A DNA stretch of 64,000 nt, taken from assembly GCA_031285625.1 (NCBI GenBank), contig JAITVV010000043.1:64001-128000 (forward strand). The letters are read 5' to 3'. The translations under genes and the position numbers were made by a program. Below, piece by piece: positions 7,567-15,004 of the stretch. The DNA is from Prevotella sp. (GTDB taxonomy: Bacteria > Bacteroidota > Bacteroidia > Bacteroidales > Dysgonomonadaceae). The notes under the pieces were generated by a model. The model was given only the letters and a program-made list of their open reading frames with translations, was not told where the DNA came from and did not search any database. Numbering within the stretch: the stretch's first letter is position 1; each line of letters begins with the position of its first letter.

Positions 7567-8628
7567 ATGAAACTAGAATCTATTTTACTTCCCGGGGTTG
7601 ACCCGAAACGTCCCTTAGTGATAGCCGGCCCTTGTAGCGCCGAAACAGAAGAACAAGTGATGAACACTGCCAGACAACTGGCTGCCGATGGCATTAAAAT
7701 CCTTCGTGCCGGAATATGGAAACCCCGGACAAAGCCAGGTGGTTTCGAAGGTGTTGGTAGCGAGGGACTTGCATGGCTCAAAAAAGTGAAACAAGAAACA
7801 GGTATGTATGTATCTACCGAGGTTGCCACTCAGAAGCATGTTTACGAAGCACTTAAATATGGTATCGATATGCTCTGGATAGGCGCACGCACCACAGCAA
7901 ACCCTTTTGCCGTACAGGAAATCGCAGAAGCTTTGCAAGGTGTTGACATCCCTGTATTGGTTAAGAACCCTGTCAATCCCGATCTTGAACTTTGGATCGG
8001 AGCGCTTGAACGACTTAGCAATGTGGGACTTACTAAAATAGGTGCTATACACCGCGGATTCAGTTCATATGATAAAAAGATATACAGGAACCTGCCCCAG
8101 TGGCATATACCAATCGAATTGCAGCGCCGTTTCCCGGACCTGCCGATTATCTGTGACCCAAGCCATATCGGGGGAAAACGTGACCTCATACAACCTTTGT
8201 CTCAACAAGCAATGGACCTGAACTATGATGGACTGATTATAGAAACACATTGCGACCCTGAGAACGCCTGGAGTGACGCGGCACAGCAGGTAACACCTGT
8301 CAGACTGAAAGAAATACTGGCTTCATTAATTATCAGAGACGGAAAGCAATCCACTGAAGACCTTTCTGACCTTCGCCGACAGATTGACGAACTTGACGAT
8401 CAATTACTCGAACTCTTAGCCAAACGTATGCGTATTTCCTGTGAAATAGGTACTTTCAAGAAAGAACACAATATGACTGTAGTTCAGACTGACCGTTATG
8501 ACGAGATACTCAACAAACGTATAGCACAGGCTGAAGGGATGAAAATGAATCCGGATTTCATGCGTATTATACTTGAAGCAATCCACGAAGAATCTGTAAG
8601 ACAACAGGTAATTATATTGAACAAATAG
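7567..8628 (+). CDS. Bifunctional DAHP synthase (type I-beta) / chorismate mutase
   Basis: IAGPCSAE, RAGIWKPRT, WIGART, DPSHIGG; C-terminal LRRQIDELDDQLLELLAKRM chorismate mutase domain. Confidence 0.93.
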   Translation: MKLESILLPGVDPKRPLVIAGPCSAETEEQVMNTARQLAADGIKILRAGIWKPRTKPGGFEGVGSEGLAWLKKVKQETGMYVSTEVATQKHVYEALKYGIDMLWIGARTTANPFAVQEIAEALQGVDIPVLVKNPVNPDLELWIGALERLSNVGLTKIGAIHRGFSSYDKKIYRNLPQWHIPIELQRRFPDLPIICDPSHIGGKRDLIQPLSQQAMDLNYDGLIIETHCDPENAWSDAAQQVTPVRLKEILASLIIRDGKQSTEDLSDLRRQIDELDDQLLELLAKRMRISCEIGTFKKEHNMTVVQTDRYDEILNKRIAQAEGMKMNPDFMRIILEAIHEESVRQQVIILNK

Positions 8629-8645
8629 TAATATATAATATCATT

Positions 8646-8683
8646 AAGGACTAAAGGATATTCAATTCTTTTAGTCCTTTTTT
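8646..8683 (+). terminator. Intrinsic terminator of the aromatic operon
   Basis: AAGGACTAAAGGA...TCTTTTAGTCCTT followed by a T run. Confidence 0.8.
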
Positions 8684-8717
8684 ATTCACTATATAATACT
8701 CGTTCTATAAAATTAGT

Positions 8718-8725
8718 TAACTTTG
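8718..8725 (+). promoter_or_regulatory. -7 promoter element directly upstream of the RAPP ORF
   Basis: TAACTTTG separated by only 4 nt from ATG 8730. Confidence 0.65.
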
Positions 8726-8729
8726 CAAA

Positions 8730-9179
8730 ATGAGACTGAAACAGATAATCACTTTAACACTATTGATCTTTGCTAATATATTTCTATTAGCACACTCTGT
8801 TTTACCTCATTCGCACCATGACGGGGTTGTCTGTTTTTCACTCGAAGAATTAACACACCAACATCATTGTTCTGACCATCATGATGATGTAGGATGCTGT
8901 TGCGAACATGGTAAAAATGGCCATCATCATTCTAACACCGAAGATTGTGATTTAAAGGATATCGTACTCCGACAACAGGACAATACACATGAAGATATAT
9001 TGCCTTGTCCCAACTGCCTTTTATTAGCGTATACACTGTATTCGCTAAACGAATTCTATATAGAAGCTCCACAATTTGGAGAGCGCCTCCGACAAAAACC
9101 TTATTTAGAAAACTATATCCCTCCCTTCGTAGGCTCTGTAAAAAGTCTGCGTGCTCCTCCTGTATCTTATTTCAGTTAA
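8730..9179 (+). CDS. His/Cys-rich exported protein with CxxC and C-terminal RAPP; candidate metal-sensing arrest peptide (DUF6769/DUF2946-like architecture)
   Basis: Hydrophobic N-terminus, 14 His and 8 Cys in residues 22-96 including CPNC, RAPP at residues 141-144 (9150-9161). Confidence 0.8.
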   Translation: MRLKQIITLTLLIFANIFLLAHSVLPHSHHDGVVCFSLEELTHQHHCSDHHDDVGCCCEHGKNGHHHSNTEDCDLKDIVLRQQDNTHEDILPCPNCLLLAYTLYSLNEFYIEAPQFGERLRQKPYLENYIPPFVGSVKSLRAPPVSYFS

Positions 9180-9289
9180 ATATAAGCCATCACTTTTAGT
9201 TGATAGCCGTTAGTCGTGAAAACGAAAGAAGCTAATAATTAACGGTCAATAGCTAAAAGCTAACTTGTAACTATTTAAGGAATAAGATA
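9163..9289 (+). promoter_or_regulatory. Long mRNA hairpin sequestering the initiation region of the efflux adaptor gene
   Basis: 9163-9182 TATCTTATTTC-AG-TTAAATA pairs with 9272-9289 TATTTAAGGAATAAGATA (18 bp, one G-U, 2-nt bulge); a nested imperfect helix joins 9193-9214 and 9238-9259. Confidence 0.7.
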
Positions 9290-10570
9290 ATGAAACAATA
9301 TATAATTTATATCGCTTGTCTGTTGGCGATACTATGGGGATGCAACTCTAAACAAAAAACAGACGATCATACTGGGCATAATCACACTGAAGAATCTAAT
9401 GCCGGACACGACCACTCAAAAGATGGGCATACTCATGCCGATGGCGAAGAATGTAGTCATAATCATGAACATGAAGCAGAGCATAACCATGCACCCGGTG
9501 AAACATGTGACCATGACCATTCGACTGAGAATGTATCAGCAGAACATGGCGATGAAATAATGTTCAACCCCGAGCAGGCTAAATCAGCAGGTTTGGAAAC
9601 GGTAACAGTTCAACCCTCTACATTTTATCAGGTAATAAAAACCAGCGGTCAGATATTATCTGCTCAGGGTGATGAGGTAACTATTTCGGCTACATCGAGT
9701 GGCATTGTATCTTTCAACAAGCCATCATTAAATGAAGGCTTAGCGGTAAAAGGCGGTGAATCTCTTTTAAGCATTTCTTCCCGGAATATTGTAGATGGTG
9801 ACCCTGCTGTTAGGGCTAAATCAACTTATGATATTGCCCAACGTGAATTTCAGCGTGCCGAATCATTAATAGGCGATAAGCTTATTGCTGAAAAGGAATA
9901 CAACGAGATTAAGCTGAATTATGAAAATGCTAAGGTCGCTTATCAGGCGATAGCACAACGTTCAACAGCCAGAGGTGTGGGTATATCAACGCCGATTACC
10001 GGATTCATTAAAACAAAGCTGGTAAATGAAGGGCAATATGTAGAAGTAGGCCAAGCTCTTATGACGGTTACCCAAAACCGGAAGTTACAGCTTCGGGCAG
10101 ATGTTTCAGAACGTTATTATAAAGATTTGGGGAATATCACTTCTGCAAATTTCAAAACTCCTTATGATAAAACAGTTTATACCCTTGCCAACCTCAATGG
10201 CAGACTTGTTTCTTATGGTAAATCGTCCAGTAACCAGGAATATTACATTCCGGTCAATTTTGAATTTGACAATATAGGGCAGGTTATATCGGGTTCGTAT
10301 GTCGAAATCTATCTGTTGGGGCAGTCACGTAATAATGTAATATCTATTCCGGTATCGTCTCTTGTGGAAGAACAGGGGCTTTATTTTGTCTATCTGCAGG
10401 TTCACGAAGATGCTTATAAAAAGCAGGAGGTAACTCCTGGCACGAGTGACGGCAGTAACATAGAGATTCTTTCCGGTCTGAAAAAGGGAGATAAGGTTGT
10501 AAGTAAAGGCACTTACCACGTTAAGCTTGCTTCGGCTTCGGCATCTATTCCCCATGCTCATGAACATTAA
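9290..10570 (+). CDS. Heavy-metal RND efflux periplasmic adaptor (CzcB/CusB-like) lipoprotein with His-rich N-terminus
   Basis: Lipobox LWGC, His-rich tract, lipoyl/hairpin segment ISTPITGFI...EGQYVEVGQAL, C-terminal GLKKGDKVV and HAHEH tail. Confidence 0.9.
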   Translation: MKQYIIYIACLLAILWGCNSKQKTDDHTGHNHTEESNAGHDHSKDGHTHADGEECSHNHEHEAEHNHAPGETCDHDHSTENVSAEHGDEIMFNPEQAKSAGLETVTVQPSTFYQVIKTSGQILSAQGDEVTISATSSGIVSFNKPSLNEGLAVKGGESLLSISSRNIVDGDPAVRAKSTYDIAQREFQRAESLIGDKLIAEKEYNEIKLNYENAKVAYQAIAQRSTARGVGISTPITGFIKTKLVNEGQYVEVGQALMTVTQNRKLQLRADVSERYYKDLGNITSANFKTPYDKTVYTLANLNGRLVSYGKSSSNQEYYIPVNFEFDNIGQVISGSYVEIYLLGQSRNNVISIPVSSLVEEQGLYFVYLQVHEDAYKKQEVTPGTSDGSNIEILSGLKKGDKVVSKGTYHVKLASASASIPHAHEH

Positions 10571-10709: not shown

Positions 10710-13700
10710 ATGCTAAATAAAATAATACAATTTTCGCTAAACAATCGTCTGGTTGTTCTTATCGGGGCTGTGCTTCTTCTTATTGGAGGACTGTATACAG
10801 CCAGAAATATGGAGATAGATGTATTCCCCGACCTGAATGCGCCTACCGTTGTTATCATGACAGAGGCAAACGGCATGGCGCCGGAAGAAGTAGAACGCCT
10901 TGTATCTTTCCCTATCGAAACGGCTGTAAATGGTGCGACTGATGTGCGCCGTGTGCGTTCGTCTTCTACTACAGGTTTTTCTGTTGTATGGGTTGAATTC
11001 GATTGGGGAACAGATATTTATAAGGCTCGCCAGATAGTAACTGAGAAACTGGCTACACTAGGTGATGCCCTTCCCGGAAATATAGGGCAACCTACCTTAG
11101 GACCACAATCTTCTATCTTGGGAGAGATAATGATTATCGGTCTGACCTCTGATTCTACTTCACTGTTAGACTTGCGTACAATTGCAGACTGGACTATTCG
11201 CCCACGATTACTTTCTACTGGTGGAGTGGCACAAGTTACAGTTATTGGTGGTGATATCAAGGAGTATCAGATATTACTTGACCCGGGGAGAATGAAACAT
11301 TATGGGGTCTCTCTTGATGAGGTATTACAGGTAACCCGCAATATGAATCAGAATGCTTCAGGCGGTATCTTATATGAATATGGAAATGAATATATTGTAA
11401 GAGGTGTCTTGCAAAGTACGGATGTAAATGAAATAGGCAAGGCTGTTATCAAGAAGGCCGGAGAAAGCCCTATCTTAGTGAGTGATGTCGCTGATATTAA
11501 GATAGGAGCTAAAACGCCGGTATTGGGCGTTGCTTCGGAAAGGACTAAGCCTGCCGTTTTACTTACTGTAACCAAGCAACCGAATACCAATACAATTGAA
11601 CTGACCGATAAGTTGGATACATCTATTGCCGATTTACAGAAAAGCCTTCCCTCTGATGTGAAGGTTACTACTGATATTTTCCGTCAGGAACGCTTTATCA
11701 ACAACTCCATTAATAATGTACAGAAGTCGTTGTACGAGGGGGCTATTTTTGTAGTTATTATCCTGTTCCTCTTCCTGATGAATGGGCGTACTACATTTAT
11801 ATCCTTGATGGCTCTGCCTCTATCTTTGCTGACTTCTATCCTTGCGCTCAAACTGATGGGACTAACCATCAATACAATGAGTCTGGGAGGAATGGCGATT
11901 GCAATAGGTTCACTGGTAGATGATGCCATTATCGATGTAGAGAATGTATTTAAACATTTAAGGGAAAACAGGCAAAAGCCTAAAGAAGAACAAAAAAGTG
12001 TACTTACTGTCGTATTTGAAGCTTCTAAAGAAGTGCGGATGCCAATACTGAACTCAACTCTGATTATCGTTACCAGCTTCATCCCTTTATTTTTCCTGAG
12101 TGGAATGGAGGGGCGTATGCTTGTTCCGCTGGGTATTGCTTTCATTGTGGCATTGTTTGCCTCTACAGTGGTGGCATTGACCGTAACTCCTGTCCTTTGT
12201 AGTTATCTCTTAGGTAAGAATAAGAAAGACAAGGAAGAAAAAGAGCCAGTCTTTGTTGTAAAACTAAAAACCGTATATGAGAAAAGCTTGCATTGGGCAT
12301 TGGAAAAGCAAAAGATTGTTCTGGGAATAACAGGGTTGCTTTTACTTTCAGCTATTATAATCTTCTTCACTTTTGGGCGTAACTTCCTGCCTCCTTTCAA
12401 TGAGGGCTCTTTTACGATTACGATAAATACATTGCCGGGAATATCTCTTGAGGAATCAGATAAAGTGGGGTCTATGGCCGAAAAAGCAATACTTAGCGTA
12501 CCTGAAATACAGACTGTAGGACGGAAAACCGGACGGGCCGAACTCGATGAACACTCTTTTGGAGTAAATACCTCGGAAATAGAGGCTCCGTTTATGTTAA
12601 AAGACCGTTCTCAGGAGGATATGCTAACCGAACTTAGGGAAAAACTGAATGCTATACCCGGTATAAGCGTTGAAATAGGTCAGCCTATATCGCACCGTAT
12701 AGACCATATGCTTTCAGGTACTAAGGCCAATATTGCCATTAAGTTATTCGGGCCGGATTTGAACAAACTGTATTCTTTAGGAAATGATATCAAATCGAAG
12801 ATAGAAAGTGTGGAAGGCGTTGCCGACCTGAATGTGGAACAACAAGTGGAACGCCCACAGTTAAAGATTGTTCCCAAACGGGAATTACTGGCTAAATATG
12901 GAATTACCTTACCTGAGTTTTCAGAATTTGTAACGACCATGCTTTCCGGAGAAGTTGTTTCTCAGGTGTATGATGCCGGGAAAAGCTTCGATCTGACATT
13001 GAAAGTGGACGATAATTATAAAGACCAAGCCGAAAAAATCAGGAATCTGATGATAGATGCTAATGGCCTGAAGATTCCTTTTGCCTATGTGGCGGATATC
13101 ACCTCTTCTACAGGCCCGAATACAGTGAACAGGGAAAATGCCCAACGTAAAATTGTAGTATCGGCAAATGTTGCCGGAAGGGATTTGCGCAGCGTAGTAA
13201 ATGATATTCAGAAAAGTGTAGATGAGAATATTCAATTACCGGAAGGATATCATATTGAATATGGAGGCCAGTTTGAGAGTGAACAAGCTGCATCACGTAC
13301 AATTATGATAGCTTCTGTCTTCGCTATTCTGATTATATTCCTGTTATTATTCAATCAGTTCAGGAATATAACACAGTCAGCCGTTATCCTTCTGAATCTG
13401 CCTCTGGCACTGATTGGTGGGGTATATGCTATACTATTTACCTCCGGTGAAATCAGTATTCCTGCCGTTATCGGGTTTATTGCCCTGTTTGGTATTGCCA
13501 CACGCAACGGTATCCTGTTGATGGCTCACTATAATGACTTGGGACATAGGGGGTATTCTGTGAATAAGAGTATTTTGCAAGGGTCTTTAGACCGGTTGAA
13601 TCCGATATTGATGACTGCCTTGTCTTCAGGCTTGGCGCTGATTCCATTGGCTGTTCAGGGAGGTCTTCCCGGAAATGAGATTCAAAGCCCGATGGCGAAG

Positions 13701-13814
13701 GTTATTCTGGGTGGATTACTCACTTCTACATTACTAAATATGTATATTGTACCCATTATATACAGAATGTTGAAGAAAAGGGAACCTGCTGTAAAAGAAG
13801 AGATTGTTAAATAA
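10710..13814 (+). CDS. CzcA/CusA-family heavy-metal efflux RND permease
   Basis: IDVFPDL, PEEVER, TM4 AIAIGSLVDDAIIDVEN, RLNPILMTAL; 1034 aa. Confidence 0.93.
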   Translation: MLNKIIQFSLNNRLVVLIGAVLLLIGGLYTARNMEIDVFPDLNAPTVVIMTEANGMAPEEVERLVSFPIETAVNGATDVRRVRSSSTTGFSVVWVEFDWGTDIYKARQIVTEKLATLGDALPGNIGQPTLGPQSSILGEIMIIGLTSDSTSLLDLRTIADWTIRPRLLSTGGVAQVTVIGGDIKEYQILLDPGRMKHYGVSLDEVLQVTRNMNQNASGGILYEYGNEYIVRGVLQSTDVNEIGKAVIKKAGESPILVSDVADIKIGAKTPVLGVASERTKPAVLLTVTKQPNTNTIELTDKLDTSIADLQKSLPSDVKVTTDIFRQERFINNSINNVQKSLYEGAIFVVIILFLFLMNGRTTFISLMALPLSLLTSILALKLMGLTINTMSLGGMAIAIGSLVDDAIIDVENVFKHLRENRQKPKEEQKSVLTVVFEASKEVRMPILNSTLIIVTSFIPLFFLSGMEGRMLVPLGIAFIVALFASTVVALTVTPVLCSYLLGKNKKDKEEKEPVFVVKLKTVYEKSLHWALEKQKIVLGITGLLLLSAIIIFFTFGRNFLPPFNEGSFTITINTLPGISLEESDKVGSMAEKAILSVPEIQTVGRKTGRAELDEHSFGVNTSEIEAPFMLKDRSQEDMLTELREKLNAIPGISVEIGQPISHRIDHMLSGTKANIAIKLFGPDLNKLYSLGNDIKSKIESVEGVADLNVEQQVERPQLKIVPKRELLAKYGITLPEFSEFVTTMLSGEVVSQVYDAGKSFDLTLKVDDNYKDQAEKIRNLMIDANGLKIPFAYVADITSSTGPNTVNRENAQRKIVVSANVAGRDLRSVVNDIQKSVDENIQLPEGYHIEYGGQFESEQAASRTIMIASVFAILIIFLLLFNQFRNITQSAVILLNLPLALIGGVYAILFTSGEISIPAVIGFIALFGIATRNGILLMAHYNDLGHRGYSVNKSILQGSLDRLNPILMTALSSGLALIPLAVQGGLPGNEIQSPMAKVILGGLLTSTLLNMYIVPIIYRMLKKREPAVKEEIVK

Positions 13815-13828
13815 ATAAGCTATAGTTT

Positions 13829-15004
13829 ATGAAACGAATAATATATATTCTCTTATTTCTACTTGCGATAAATGTACAGGCGCAAGACTCATTTAATAAT
13901 GTGATTAGAGAAATTGAGGCTAATAATACAACCCTGAAAGCCTACAGGGAAAAAGCCAATGCCGATAAGATAGGCAACAAAACAGGTATTAATATGGCCA
14001 ATCCCGAAGTAGAATTCGGTTACCTATGGGGAAGCCCCTCTGCTATAGGTCATAAGATAGACCTGAATGTAACCCAGTCATTTGATTTCCCTACAGCCTA
14101 TCGTTATAAGAATCAGTTAGCTGATGGAAAGAATGTACAGGTAGATATGATTTATAATCAGCAATGTATGGAAATTCTGCAGGAAGCCAGACTGTTGTAC
14201 GTTCAATTGGTGTATCAGGCAAGCATGCATAAAGAGTTATCTCAGAGGCTGATGCAGGCAAGAGAATTATCAGATGCTTATCAGAAGAGTTTCGACCAGG
14301 GAAATATAGATATCCTGGAGCGGAACAAAACTAAGCTGAACCTGCTGAGTGCAGAGAAAGCTTTACAGATAAACGAAGTAGATATGAACCTGTCAAAATC
14401 TGAACTGCAACGCCTGAACGGAGGTCTGGAATTGACCTCTATAGCAGACAGTTATCCCGCTTTTGTGTTCCCTCTAAACTTTATTGAGTGGTTTGAAAGG
14501 ATAAAAGATAATAATCCCGCGCTTCAGGTAACTGAACAGGAGATTGCACTCAGTAGGAAGCAGGAACAACTGACACGTGCCCTCAACCTTCCCAAAATAA
14601 CTGCCGGATATACCAGTGAAAGGACTTCCGGCGAGACTTTTCAGGGAGTTTCGGTAGGGGTATCTATTCCTCTGTGGGAAGGGAAGAACACCGTGAAGCA
14701 TCAGAAAGCACAAACTGTTGCTTTGCAGATGCAACATGATGACTCGAAGCTGCAGTTTAGGAATTCTCTTAAAAATCAGTATGATAAAGCGAAGAAACTA
14801 TCCTTGTTATTGAGAGAGTATCAGGAAGCCTTAAGTGTTACAAGCAATCAGGAATTATTGAAAAAAGCATTGGATAAGGGTCAATTGTCTCTTATTAATT
14901 ATCTGTTGGAACTATCCGTATATTATGAAACAATGGATAAATATCTGGAAACAGAAAGAGACTACCAGTTGGCTGTAGCAGAATTACAGCGATGGGAAAG
15001 ATAG
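13829..15004 (+). CDS. TolC/CzcC-family outer-membrane efflux protein
   Basis: Signal peptide, helical repeats, GVSVGVSIPLW strand; third gene of the RND operon. Confidence 0.88.
   Translation: MKRIIYILLFLLAINVQAQDSFNNVIREIEANNTTLKAYREKANADKIGNKTGINMANPEVEFGYLWGSPSAIGHKIDLNVTQSFDFPTAYRYKNQLADGKNVQVDMIYNQQCMEILQEARLLYVQLVYQASMHKELSQRLMQARELSDAYQKSFDQGNIDILERNKTKLNLLSAEKALQINEVDMNLSKSELQRLNGGLELTSIADSYPAFVFPLNFIEWFERIKDNNPALQVTEQEIALSRKQEQLTRALNLPKITAGYTSERTSGETFQGVSVGVSIPLWEGKNTVKHQKAQTVALQMQHDDSKLQFRNSLKNQYDKAKKLSLLLREYQEALSVTSNQELLKKALDKGQLSLINYLLELSVYYETMDKYLETERDYQLAVAELQRWER

Follow-up and report, generated by a model that had tools for sequence, protein, structure and literature searches.

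In SecM and MifM, a stalled ribosome disrupts an mRNA structure that hides a downstream start, and release from the stall needs a pulling force on the nascent chain. Both of these systems sense the activity of a translocase or an insertase, not metal. In this work we describe a 149-aa open reading frame (ORF) of the Pfam family DUF6769 that probably encodes an arrest leader peptide similar to the copper-responsive CutF and CruR, where a stalled ribosome would unmask the initiation region of the adaptor gene of a heavy-metal efflux pump. The ORF was found in a stretch of 64,000 nucleotides from Prevotella sp. (GTDB order Bacteroidales, family Dysgonomonadaceae; GenBank assembly GCA_031285625.1, contig JAITVV010000043.1, positions 64,001 to 128,000 of the forward strand). 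We refer to this whole stretch as the window, and all coordinates are counted from its first letter (Table 1). The leader element is real and non-random, and it fits the published logic of metal-responsive arrest leader peptides feature for feature.

Two described systems come closest to this locus. CutF, a DUF2946 protein encoded in the cutFOG operon of Rhodobacter capsulatus, is exported co-translationally, and copper prolongs the stall at its C-terminal proline motif (PMC9973294; 10.1101/2025.02.05.636593). The stalled ribosome melts a stem-loop that hides cutO's ribosome-binding site, and in this way the detoxifying gene is turned on (PMC9973294). As described for CruR (bp2923, likewise DUF2946) of Bordetella pertussis, copper relieves the stall, and Rho then terminates transcription before the gene of a TonB-dependent transporter (PMC9426467). 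The CutF paper also catalogues 5,334 CutF-like proteins, of which Pseudomonadota contribute 76% and Bacteroidota 19%, and among whose neighbours are OEP, ACR_tran, HlyD_D23, TonB-like proteins and PCuAC; as given in its main text, the spacer lengths were measured and the structures were not (PMC9973294). The initial annotation of our locus, made from the sequence alone, had stated that no such switch was described for the resistance-nodulation-division (RND) pumps of Bacteroidota. This holds for experiments only, as the CutF catalogue already contains members from this phylum and neighbours of the RND type. A 2025 survey of RAPP/RGPP proteins reports TonB receptors, YcnI, PCu(A)C, PepSY and DsbA/thioredoxin as neighbours; copper-related upstream ORFs (uORFs) are not found in Bacteroidota according to its main text, where the word 'efflux' is absent (PMC12992588). 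A 5PSeq study contains nothing on RAPP.

The first line of evidence is the motif itself. The ORF has 14 His and 8 Cys residues, with CPNC from residue 93 and RAPP from residue 141, five codons before the TAA stop, all of which had been correctly read from the sequence at the outset. From the precedent of ApdA and ApdP (PMC10951233), the P-site codon of an arrested ribosome is predicted to be 9156-9158 and the A-site codon 9159-9161. Conservation of RAPP in homologs had been set beforehand as a refuting test, and the motif proved to be almost invariant. In the window ORF and 44 close homologs, L140-R141-A142-P143-P144 is identical in 45 of 45 aligned sequences (the alignment took 44 of 46 hits, with P0014 and P0018 omitted for no content reason). 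Across 28 diverse members, whose identity to the window ORF is 19-71%, P26, H27, C73 and LRAPP are the columns that never vary, and C35 is kept in at least 90%. An alignment of 150 sequences has P26, H27, C73, R141, P143 and P144 invariant, with H28-H30, L140 and A142 at 90% or more.

These alignments were complemented by an analysis designed against circularity, for which a hidden Markov model (HMM) was built without the C-terminus and run on the six-frame open frames of 81 loci. The ORF was recovered in 78 of these, and the motif was RAPP in 76, RGPP in one (L063) and RSPP in one (L030). It lies 2-6 residues from the stop, or 10 residues for the RSPP of L030; the three loci where the ORF was not matched (L053-L055) hold sub-threshold or stop-containing Pfam matches. 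Similarly, 147 cluster representatives contain RAPP in 140 cases, RGPP in five and RVPP in one, and the last of them (P0156) ends short of the motif. Here the motif is 1-6 residues from the C-terminal end and a Leu precedes the Arg in 144 of 146, whereas the tail past RAPP varies freely in both length and sequence. The sole recurrent substitute, RGPP, is the other strong arrest motif of the published survey (PMC12992588). Within the genome, the open frames of at least 150 aa (1.51 million residues) contain RAPP once, in the leader ORF; the comparison tetrapeptides RAPA, RPPA and AAPP occur 8, 6 and 5 times in the same frames. The leader ORF combines two traits of arrest peptides, a conserved C-terminal RAPP/RGPP and a predicted N-terminal signal or transmembrane segment. 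A monitor of Sec or YidC would be expected to precede a gene for localisation machinery, and here the downstream gene encodes an RND adaptor.

The second line of evidence is a long-range RNA helix that closes over the start of the adaptor gene. The minimum free energy fold of 9140-9300 has -32.7 kcal/mol (z = -2.36; 2 of 200 shuffles were as stable). Its closing helix consists of three parts, with 9163-9173 paired to 9279-9289 (11 bp, one G-U), followed by a 2-nt bulge (9174-9175), 9176-9180 paired to 9274-9278 (5 bp) and, past a 4-nt asymmetric loop, 9181-9186 paired to 9264-9269 (6 bp). The stop codon of the leader ORF sits within the helix. An 18-bp helix between 9163-9182 and 9272-9289 had been proposed in the initial annotation; the helix exists, in a register of 16 bp plus 6 bp that differs from the proposed one by two or three pairs. 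The arm-to-arm energy alone is -14.0 kcal/mol, which was equalled in 4 of 2000 shuffles of the 5′ arm.

Comparisons between species give further information about this helix. For the Dysgonomonas clade, where a search with the close-homolog alignment gave 17 loci, the species cannot be aligned with one another inside the spacer, but both arms are kept. With 24 clade sequences, the closing helix was all that RNAalifold gave as a consensus structure, and compensatory changes occur in 7 of its 11 pairs, e.g. from A-U to C-G in columns 20/221. In the clade alignment 93.8% of cells are paired, compared with 47-60% after the 3′ partner was slid by 1-3 columns, and none of 500 shuffles reached any of the five measures. 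A caveat is that related sequences can outdo every shuffle; the slide control and two pair-counting measures are sounder, and these are concordant.

For the wider family we used a duplex test, in which the 33 nt that start with the last Pro codon were paired with the 33 nt up to and including the G of the downstream AUG, in 44 loci of less than 60% protein identity. The native duplexes had a mean of -9.5 kcal/mol, as against -5.2 kcal/mol for cross-locus pairs, and no permutation of the partners out of 20,000 matched the native sum; the result was the same (0 of 20,000) with a stricter set of 16 loci. At or below the 5th percentile of cross pairs there were 23 of the 44 natives, where about 2 are expected, and for 17 of the 44 no cross-locus partner paired better. 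The 23 loci have a 5′ arm that starts within about 4 nt of the end of the motif and a 3′ arm whose end falls in the range from 11 nt ahead of the AUG to the last AUG base; the arm sequences differ widely among subfamilies. The expectation that the helix would be conserved is borne out in the clade, where it is kept with differing sequences, and in about half of the wider family only.

We also modelled the effect of a stalled ribosome, by folding only the RNA 3′ of a ribosome whose edge was placed 12-15 nt past the P site. The mean unpaired probability of 9270-9289 goes from 0.21 to 0.53-0.54, and that of 9278-9292 from 0.18-0.22 to 0.45-0.47. Opening of this region, once the RNA covered by the ribosome is blocked, had been anticipated and was recovered.

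The protein fits DUF6769 (PF20558) with 28.8 bits against a cut-off of 27; the match spans residues 6-144, i.e. profile positions 3-129 of 130, and the same family is matched by 28 of 28 aligned relatives. We found no study of this family in the literature searched, where the name DUF6769 turns up in a single, unrelated paper. The family HMM matched 55 of 101 genomes sampled within the same taxonomic family, 78 of 401 within the order and 8 of 401 in a phylum sample (mostly other orders). A search of 1.84 billion representatives with the profile of 28 diverse members gave 2,413 clusters (50% identity) at E <= 0.001 and 1,117 at E <= 1e-10. The source names of the close homologs are Dysgonomonas, with some labelled Prevotella. 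Against DUF2946 (PF11162) the window ORF gave no match, and E = 0.39 was reached by only two of 28 family members. In the class Bacteroidia, PF11162 was found in 2 of 201 genomes, both times weakly and in open frames of 341 and 327 aa.

All DUF6769 members start with a basic stretch and then a hydrophobic helix, and the family has a hydropathy peak 117-129 residues upstream of the P-site Pro that matches this N-terminal helix; residues 3-24, after the basic start, are a predicted signal-anchor or signal peptide. The helix is followed by P-H-x-H-H, a Cys, a low-complexity stretch rich in His, Asp, Glu and Cys, Cys73, which is the only invariant residue in mid-protein, and a second hydrophobic segment, H2. 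We regard P26-H27-x-H-H, C35 and C73 as conserved candidate metal ligands. C93 and C96 are kept in at least 90% of the close homologs, and CPNC is confined to the Dysgonomonas subfamily. AlphaFold2, run with 150 sequences, predicts helices at 3-24, 38-46 and 94-108 and a small hairpin at 28-35, with a mean predicted local distance difference test (pLDDT) of 65.3. In 146 representatives, a scan over the stretch 20-75 residues away from the arrest point put the centre of the 11-residue window of highest hydrophobicity at a median of 42 residues (interquartile range 38-44) upstream of the P-site Pro. A spacing of about 42 residues would place H2 at the tunnel exit or translocon once the ribosome reaches RAPP. 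Hydrophobic segments just beyond the exit tunnel exert pulling force in force-profile experiments.

The start of the ORF varies across the family. There are 20 loci (L002, L005, L008-L010, L013, L017, L020, L021, L027, L028 and others) with no in-frame ATG before the first helix. Their probable start codon is TTG or GTG, with Lys/Arg codons next to it, and the weakness of such a start codon could be meaningful in its own right for a regulatory leader.

We propose that the switch works as follows. The N-terminal helix would bring the nascent chain to the membrane, with the His/Cys-rich stretch (PHxHH, C35, C73) then outside the ribosome. A ribosome paused at RAPP would cover and unwind the 5′ arm over its first 8-10 bases, starting at 9163, and this unwinding would release the A-rich bases before the adaptor ATG from the long-range helix, allowing a second ribosome to initiate. 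Pump output would be set by the length of the pause. Metal on the exported His/Cys stretch would lower the pulling force, through folding, disulfide formation or the membrane insertion of H2, and a lower pulling force would give a longer pause and turn the exporter on, by analogy with CutF. Pausing on Bacteroidota ribosomes, the binding of metal, the direction of the response and an action in cis only are all elements that we infer.

A more far-reaching idea, which we put forward tentatively and hold to be doubtful, is that DUF6769 proteins are force-gated transmembrane metal sensors that act solely while they are nascent chains, with H2 inserting or not according to how much metal the exported loop carries. 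Helix 1 would then anchor the chain, the His/Cys loop would be exported, and H2 would be at the translocon when the ribosome is at RAPP. Insertion of H2 would pull the chain out of the arrest, and the result would be written into the long-range anti-initiation helix of a leaderless mRNA, in hosts that initiate translation without Shine-Dalgarno pairing. If true, this would amount to control of heavy-metal RND pumps throughout the Bacteroidales that is free of protein regulators, with a sensor architecture unlike those of CutF and CruR.

Several points weigh against an arrest leader at this locus. A ribosome at the stop codon opens the helix equally, hence a pause would lengthen the opening, not create one, and plain translational coupling accounts for part of the RNA evidence. 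The modelled gain in accessibility, from 0.21 to 0.53, would in any case be moderate. Pairing of the post-RAPP and pre-AUG bases above the cross-locus background was not seen in 21 of the 44 loci, therefore the helix is not universal in the DUF6769 family, and since the 5′ arm belongs to coding sequence, its conservation could partly stem from the protein. CPNC, which had initially been taken for the sensor, is not conserved across the 28 diverse members of DUF6769. Given the low AlphaFold2 confidence, the topology and the metal sites are only predictions. The switch as a whole is predicted from sequence and RNA computation, pausing of Bacteroidota ribosomes at RAPP being presumed, and the protein might have its own job, as CzcI does (PMC10127602).

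The loci where pairing was not seen include L005, L008, L009, L010, L013, L018 and 15 more. Several of these have a strong hairpin soon after the stop, in some cases with a U-rich tract next to it, which points to another kind of read-out (attenuation, perhaps) or to start codons that were assigned wrongly.

If the protein were a conventional small accessory of the pump that binds metal in the membrane or periplasm (a metallochaperone, say, or a modulator like CzcI), RAPP would serve the mature protein and the helix would merely couple translation. The length of 149 aa, the conserved His and Cys residues and the two predicted helices all agree with this, as does the modelled opening of the helix, which a terminating ribosome brings about to the same degree as a stalled one. 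In the protein atlas, the closest cluster with a name is 'CzcI-like' (0.93, 111 shared features; a weak lead by the calibration of the tool), and CzcI is reported to be a periplasmic quencher of CzcCBA activity (PMC10127602). However, an accessory function does not sit easily with LRAPP as the sole invariant block besides P26/H27/C73, fixed at 1-6 residues from the stop when the tail is free, nor with RGPP, another arrest motif, as the only recurrent substitute, nor with the absence of RAPP elsewhere in the long open frames of the genome. According to the main text of PMC9973294, CzcI itself is without a C-terminal proline motif. We therefore consider it unlikely that the protein is an accessory and nothing else; an accessory protein and an arrest leader are compatible with each other.

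Assuming that the ORF is an arrest leader, the read-out may yet be of the CruR type, with the ribosome at RAPP blocking the loading of Rho and the pause governing transcription into the pump genes. Such a mechanism is the one described for CruR (PMC9426467), and since 21 of the 44 loci are without the anti-initiation helix, several of them with strong post-stop hairpins, some members may use attenuation. In the window there is no clear bias of C over G, neither in 9100-9290 (35 C, 30 G) nor in the intergenic 9180-9289 (15 C, 19 G, 69% A+T); the intergenic RNA is highly structured, unlike a Rho-loading site, and the covarying helix stops exactly at the start codon. A Rho-dependent read-out is thus very unlikely here. 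Finally, it is scarcely credible that a hypothetical protein ends in RAPP by chance beside an A/U-rich spacer that folds by chance. It is true that both arms are A/U-rich and pair easily, and that the z-score of the fold is only -2.36, but coincidence would have to account for the invariance of the motif across the family, for the 0 of 20,000 permutations, for the slide and shuffle controls and for the 4 of 2000 arm shuffles.

The surroundings of the proposed arrest leader are summarized in Table 1. The terminator-like hairpin that closes the upstream gene marks the leader ORF as the beginning of a separate transcription unit. There are 3 terminator-like sites in the region, compared with 0.5 expected, and a search for a + strand terminator between the leader ORF and the adaptor gene found none. 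The consensus TAnnTTTG is that of the Bacteroidetes -7 promoter box, and because the box TAACTTTG ends so close to the ATG, the mRNA of the leader ORF is probably leaderless or nearly so. Of 56 distinct ATG-start loci, 24 have such a box starting 10-16 nt 5′ of the ATG, a position shared by all 16 Dysgonomonas-clade loci among those listed, and it is found no more than 40 nt from the ATG in about 20 further loci. A sigma-70 promoter scan gave 6 sites against 4.0 expected, with a sigma-70 model that is uninformative for Bacteroidota. Leader, His-rich adaptor, CusA/CzcA-type pump and outer-membrane factor most likely form a four-gene operon, in which the adaptor is a lipoprotein with an N-terminal region rich in His, Asp and Glu. 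The matching sequencing runs, all available as contigs only, were one RNA-seq run (share 0.18), one that is presumably RNA and one of unspecified kind that contains the stretch. In the RNA-seq run, a 786-nt contig of a relative that is about 90% alike spans 8500-9008 and 9096-9172; this contig informs on neither the transcript boundary nor expression, and the uncovered parts carry no meaning.

Table 1. Features of the leader locus and the putative pump operon, in window coordinates
Feature	Position	Strand	Remarks
Upstream gene, 353-aa ORF	7567-8628		Looks like 3-deoxy-D-arabino-heptulosonate 7-phosphate (DAHP) synthase fused to chorismate mutase; judged by eye from the translation, no search made
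Terminator-like hairpin and T-run	8646-8689	+	13-pair stem 8646-8679, then TTTTATT; closes the upstream gene
-7-type promoter box TAACTTTG	8718-8725	+	Fits TAnnTTTG; 3′ end 4 nt before the leader ATG
DUF6769 ORF, proposed arrest leader peptide, 149 aa	8730-9179	+	TAA stop 9177-9179
N-terminal hydrophobic helix, residues 3-24	8736-8801	+	AlphaFold2 helix, block pLDDT 90-94
PHSHHDGVVC, residues 26-35	8805-8834	+	Conserved His cluster and first conserved Cys, from alignments
Cys73	8946-8948	+	Invariant in alignments of 45, 28 and 150 sequences
CPNC, residues 93-96	9006-9017	+	44 residues between CPNC and RAPP
Second hydrophobic helix H2, residues 94-108	9009-9053	+	AlphaFold2 helix
L-R-A-P-P, putative arrest motif	9147-9161	+	RAPP is residues 141-144, CGT GCT CCT CCT, 9150-9161
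5′ arm of closing helix	9163-9186	+	Last five codons, TAA stop and 7 nt beyond
Nested hairpins inside closing helix	9193-9259	+	Sequence varies between species
3′ arm of closing helix	9264-9289	+	A-rich initiation region; last base adjoins the adaptor ATG (9290)
RND periplasmic adaptor, proposed regulated gene	9290-10570	+	TIGR01730, 134.8 bits (cut-off 94.9); HlyD_D23, HlyD_3
CusA/CzcA-family heavy-metal efflux RND pump	10710-13814	+	TIGR00914, 821.5 bits (cut-off 701.45); ACR_tran
Outer-membrane efflux protein	13829-15004	+	PF02321 OEP, E = 4.8e-32

The association with RND adaptors extends across the family. A same-strand downstream ORF of at least 100 aa is present in 77 loci (L079 ends too early), and 73 of the downstream proteins were scanned, L003, L011, L046 and L070 having been dropped as identical or near-identical. 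HlyD_D23/HlyD_3, i.e. an RND adaptor of the CusB/HlyD type, was matched in 64 of the 73, and the other matches were PAP2 (5), ACR_tran (1) and FUR (1). Nearly all adaptors across the loci are lipoproteins with His-rich N-terminal regions, and the spacer from the leader to the next gene is mostly 75-190 nt. DUF6769 precedes a PAP2 phosphatase in five or six loci and a Fur-family regulator in one (L031). The ORF, the spacer and the PAP2 downstream gene are identical in L002 (G021, genus g21) and L003 (G043, genus g1), and this identity across two genera suggests recent horizontal transfer.

The same genome holds a second RAPP ORF. Contig C52 (L084:2714-3094, - strand) carries an ORF of 126 aa that has a hydrophobic N-terminus, contains HSH/HHH clusters and ends in ...HRAPPFSVL; it is located 176 nt upstream of a TonB-dependent receptor (L084:252-2537, - strand). 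The fold of this region has -52.4 kcal/mol (z = -4.13, 0 of 200 shuffles), and the post-RAPP bases pair with the AUG region of the receptor, enclosing four hairpins. No Pfam family was matched by this ORF. It was tried as a DUF6769 homolog and rejected: hhalign gave a probability of 10.9% over the C-terminal 29 columns only, so the two are not homologous. The layout of the closing helix is reused by at least one unrelated RAPP ORF in the same genome.

With CruR published in 2022 and CutF in 2023 and 2025, the principle and the exporter polarity are already known. The initial annotation had left the polarity open, but a logic that fits an exporter has already been published for CutF (PMC9973294; 10.1101/2025.02.05.636593). 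Judged against the main text of the CutF catalogue paper (PMC9973294), the predicted placement of DUF6769 in the class of arrest leaders appears to be new. The covarying long-range anti-initiation helix, H2 at a fixed distance, the near-leaderless start and a Czc-type exporter as the target in Bacteroidales are also new.

The control of heavy-metal RND pumps is usually credited to two-component systems or to regulators of the MerR/ArsR type. Many Bacteroidales pumps appear to be under a ribosome-arrest leader instead, given a family of at least 2,413 clusters. We propose a function for a Pfam family of unknown function, and the CutF/CruR principle would now reach gut and environmental Bacteroidales and exporters of the Czc type. 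The family HMM also matches Bacteroides thetaiotaomicron, which served as a control genome. This species is genetically tractable, therefore the prediction is testable there. The results are of relevance for the gating of translation initiation in bacteria without Shine-Dalgarno pairing, and for the old question of what role the small ORFs ahead of czc-type operons play.

How the window ORF relates to the known systems can now be stated more fully. Like ApdA, ApdP and ApcA, it encodes a small protein that carries a localisation signal (a predicted one here) and, close to its C-terminal end, RAPP/RGPP, and it is located upstream of a presumed target; unlike it, these three monitor Sec/YidC. It shares with CzcI of Cupriavidus metallidurans the position of a small ORF directly upstream of a heavy-metal RND operon of the czcCBA type, and the leaderless mRNA of czcI2 (PMC10127602) parallels the -7 box 4 nt before the leader ATG. 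CzcI differs in being a periplasmic pump quencher that is described as being without a C-terminal proline motif (PMC9973294, PMC10127602). CruR, as reported, has a C-terminal RAPP a few residues from the stop in an exported uORF that heads a metal-homeostasis operon (PMC9426467), and this much is common to both, export being a prediction for the window ORF. The distance from CPNC to RAPP in the window is 44 residues and that from CXXC in CruR is 45, although CxxC is not a DUF6769 trait. Unlike the window system, CruR controls an importer and is read out by Rho termination over an unstructured C-rich region (PMC9426467).

The comparison with CutF is the most instructive. The two differ in several respects, as the window ORF has RAPP where CutF has PPP, a His cluster and two Cys where CutF has CxxxC, and a second hydrophobic helix that is 42 residues away from the arrest point. 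Its helix is a long-range closure round about 70 nt of nested hairpins that masks an A-rich start without a Shine-Dalgarno sequence, the target is an RND adaptor and not a multicopper oxidase, and the host belongs to the Bacteroidales. On the other hand, both are small proteins that are exported (a prediction in our case), with a metal-binding motif (a candidate one here) and a C-terminal proline stalling motif, both are encoded by the first cistron of a metal-detoxification operon, and in both a helix lies over the initiation region of the next gene. The polarity of CutF, where metal leads to a longer stall and the detoxifying gene is turned on, is the very logic that an exporter needs.

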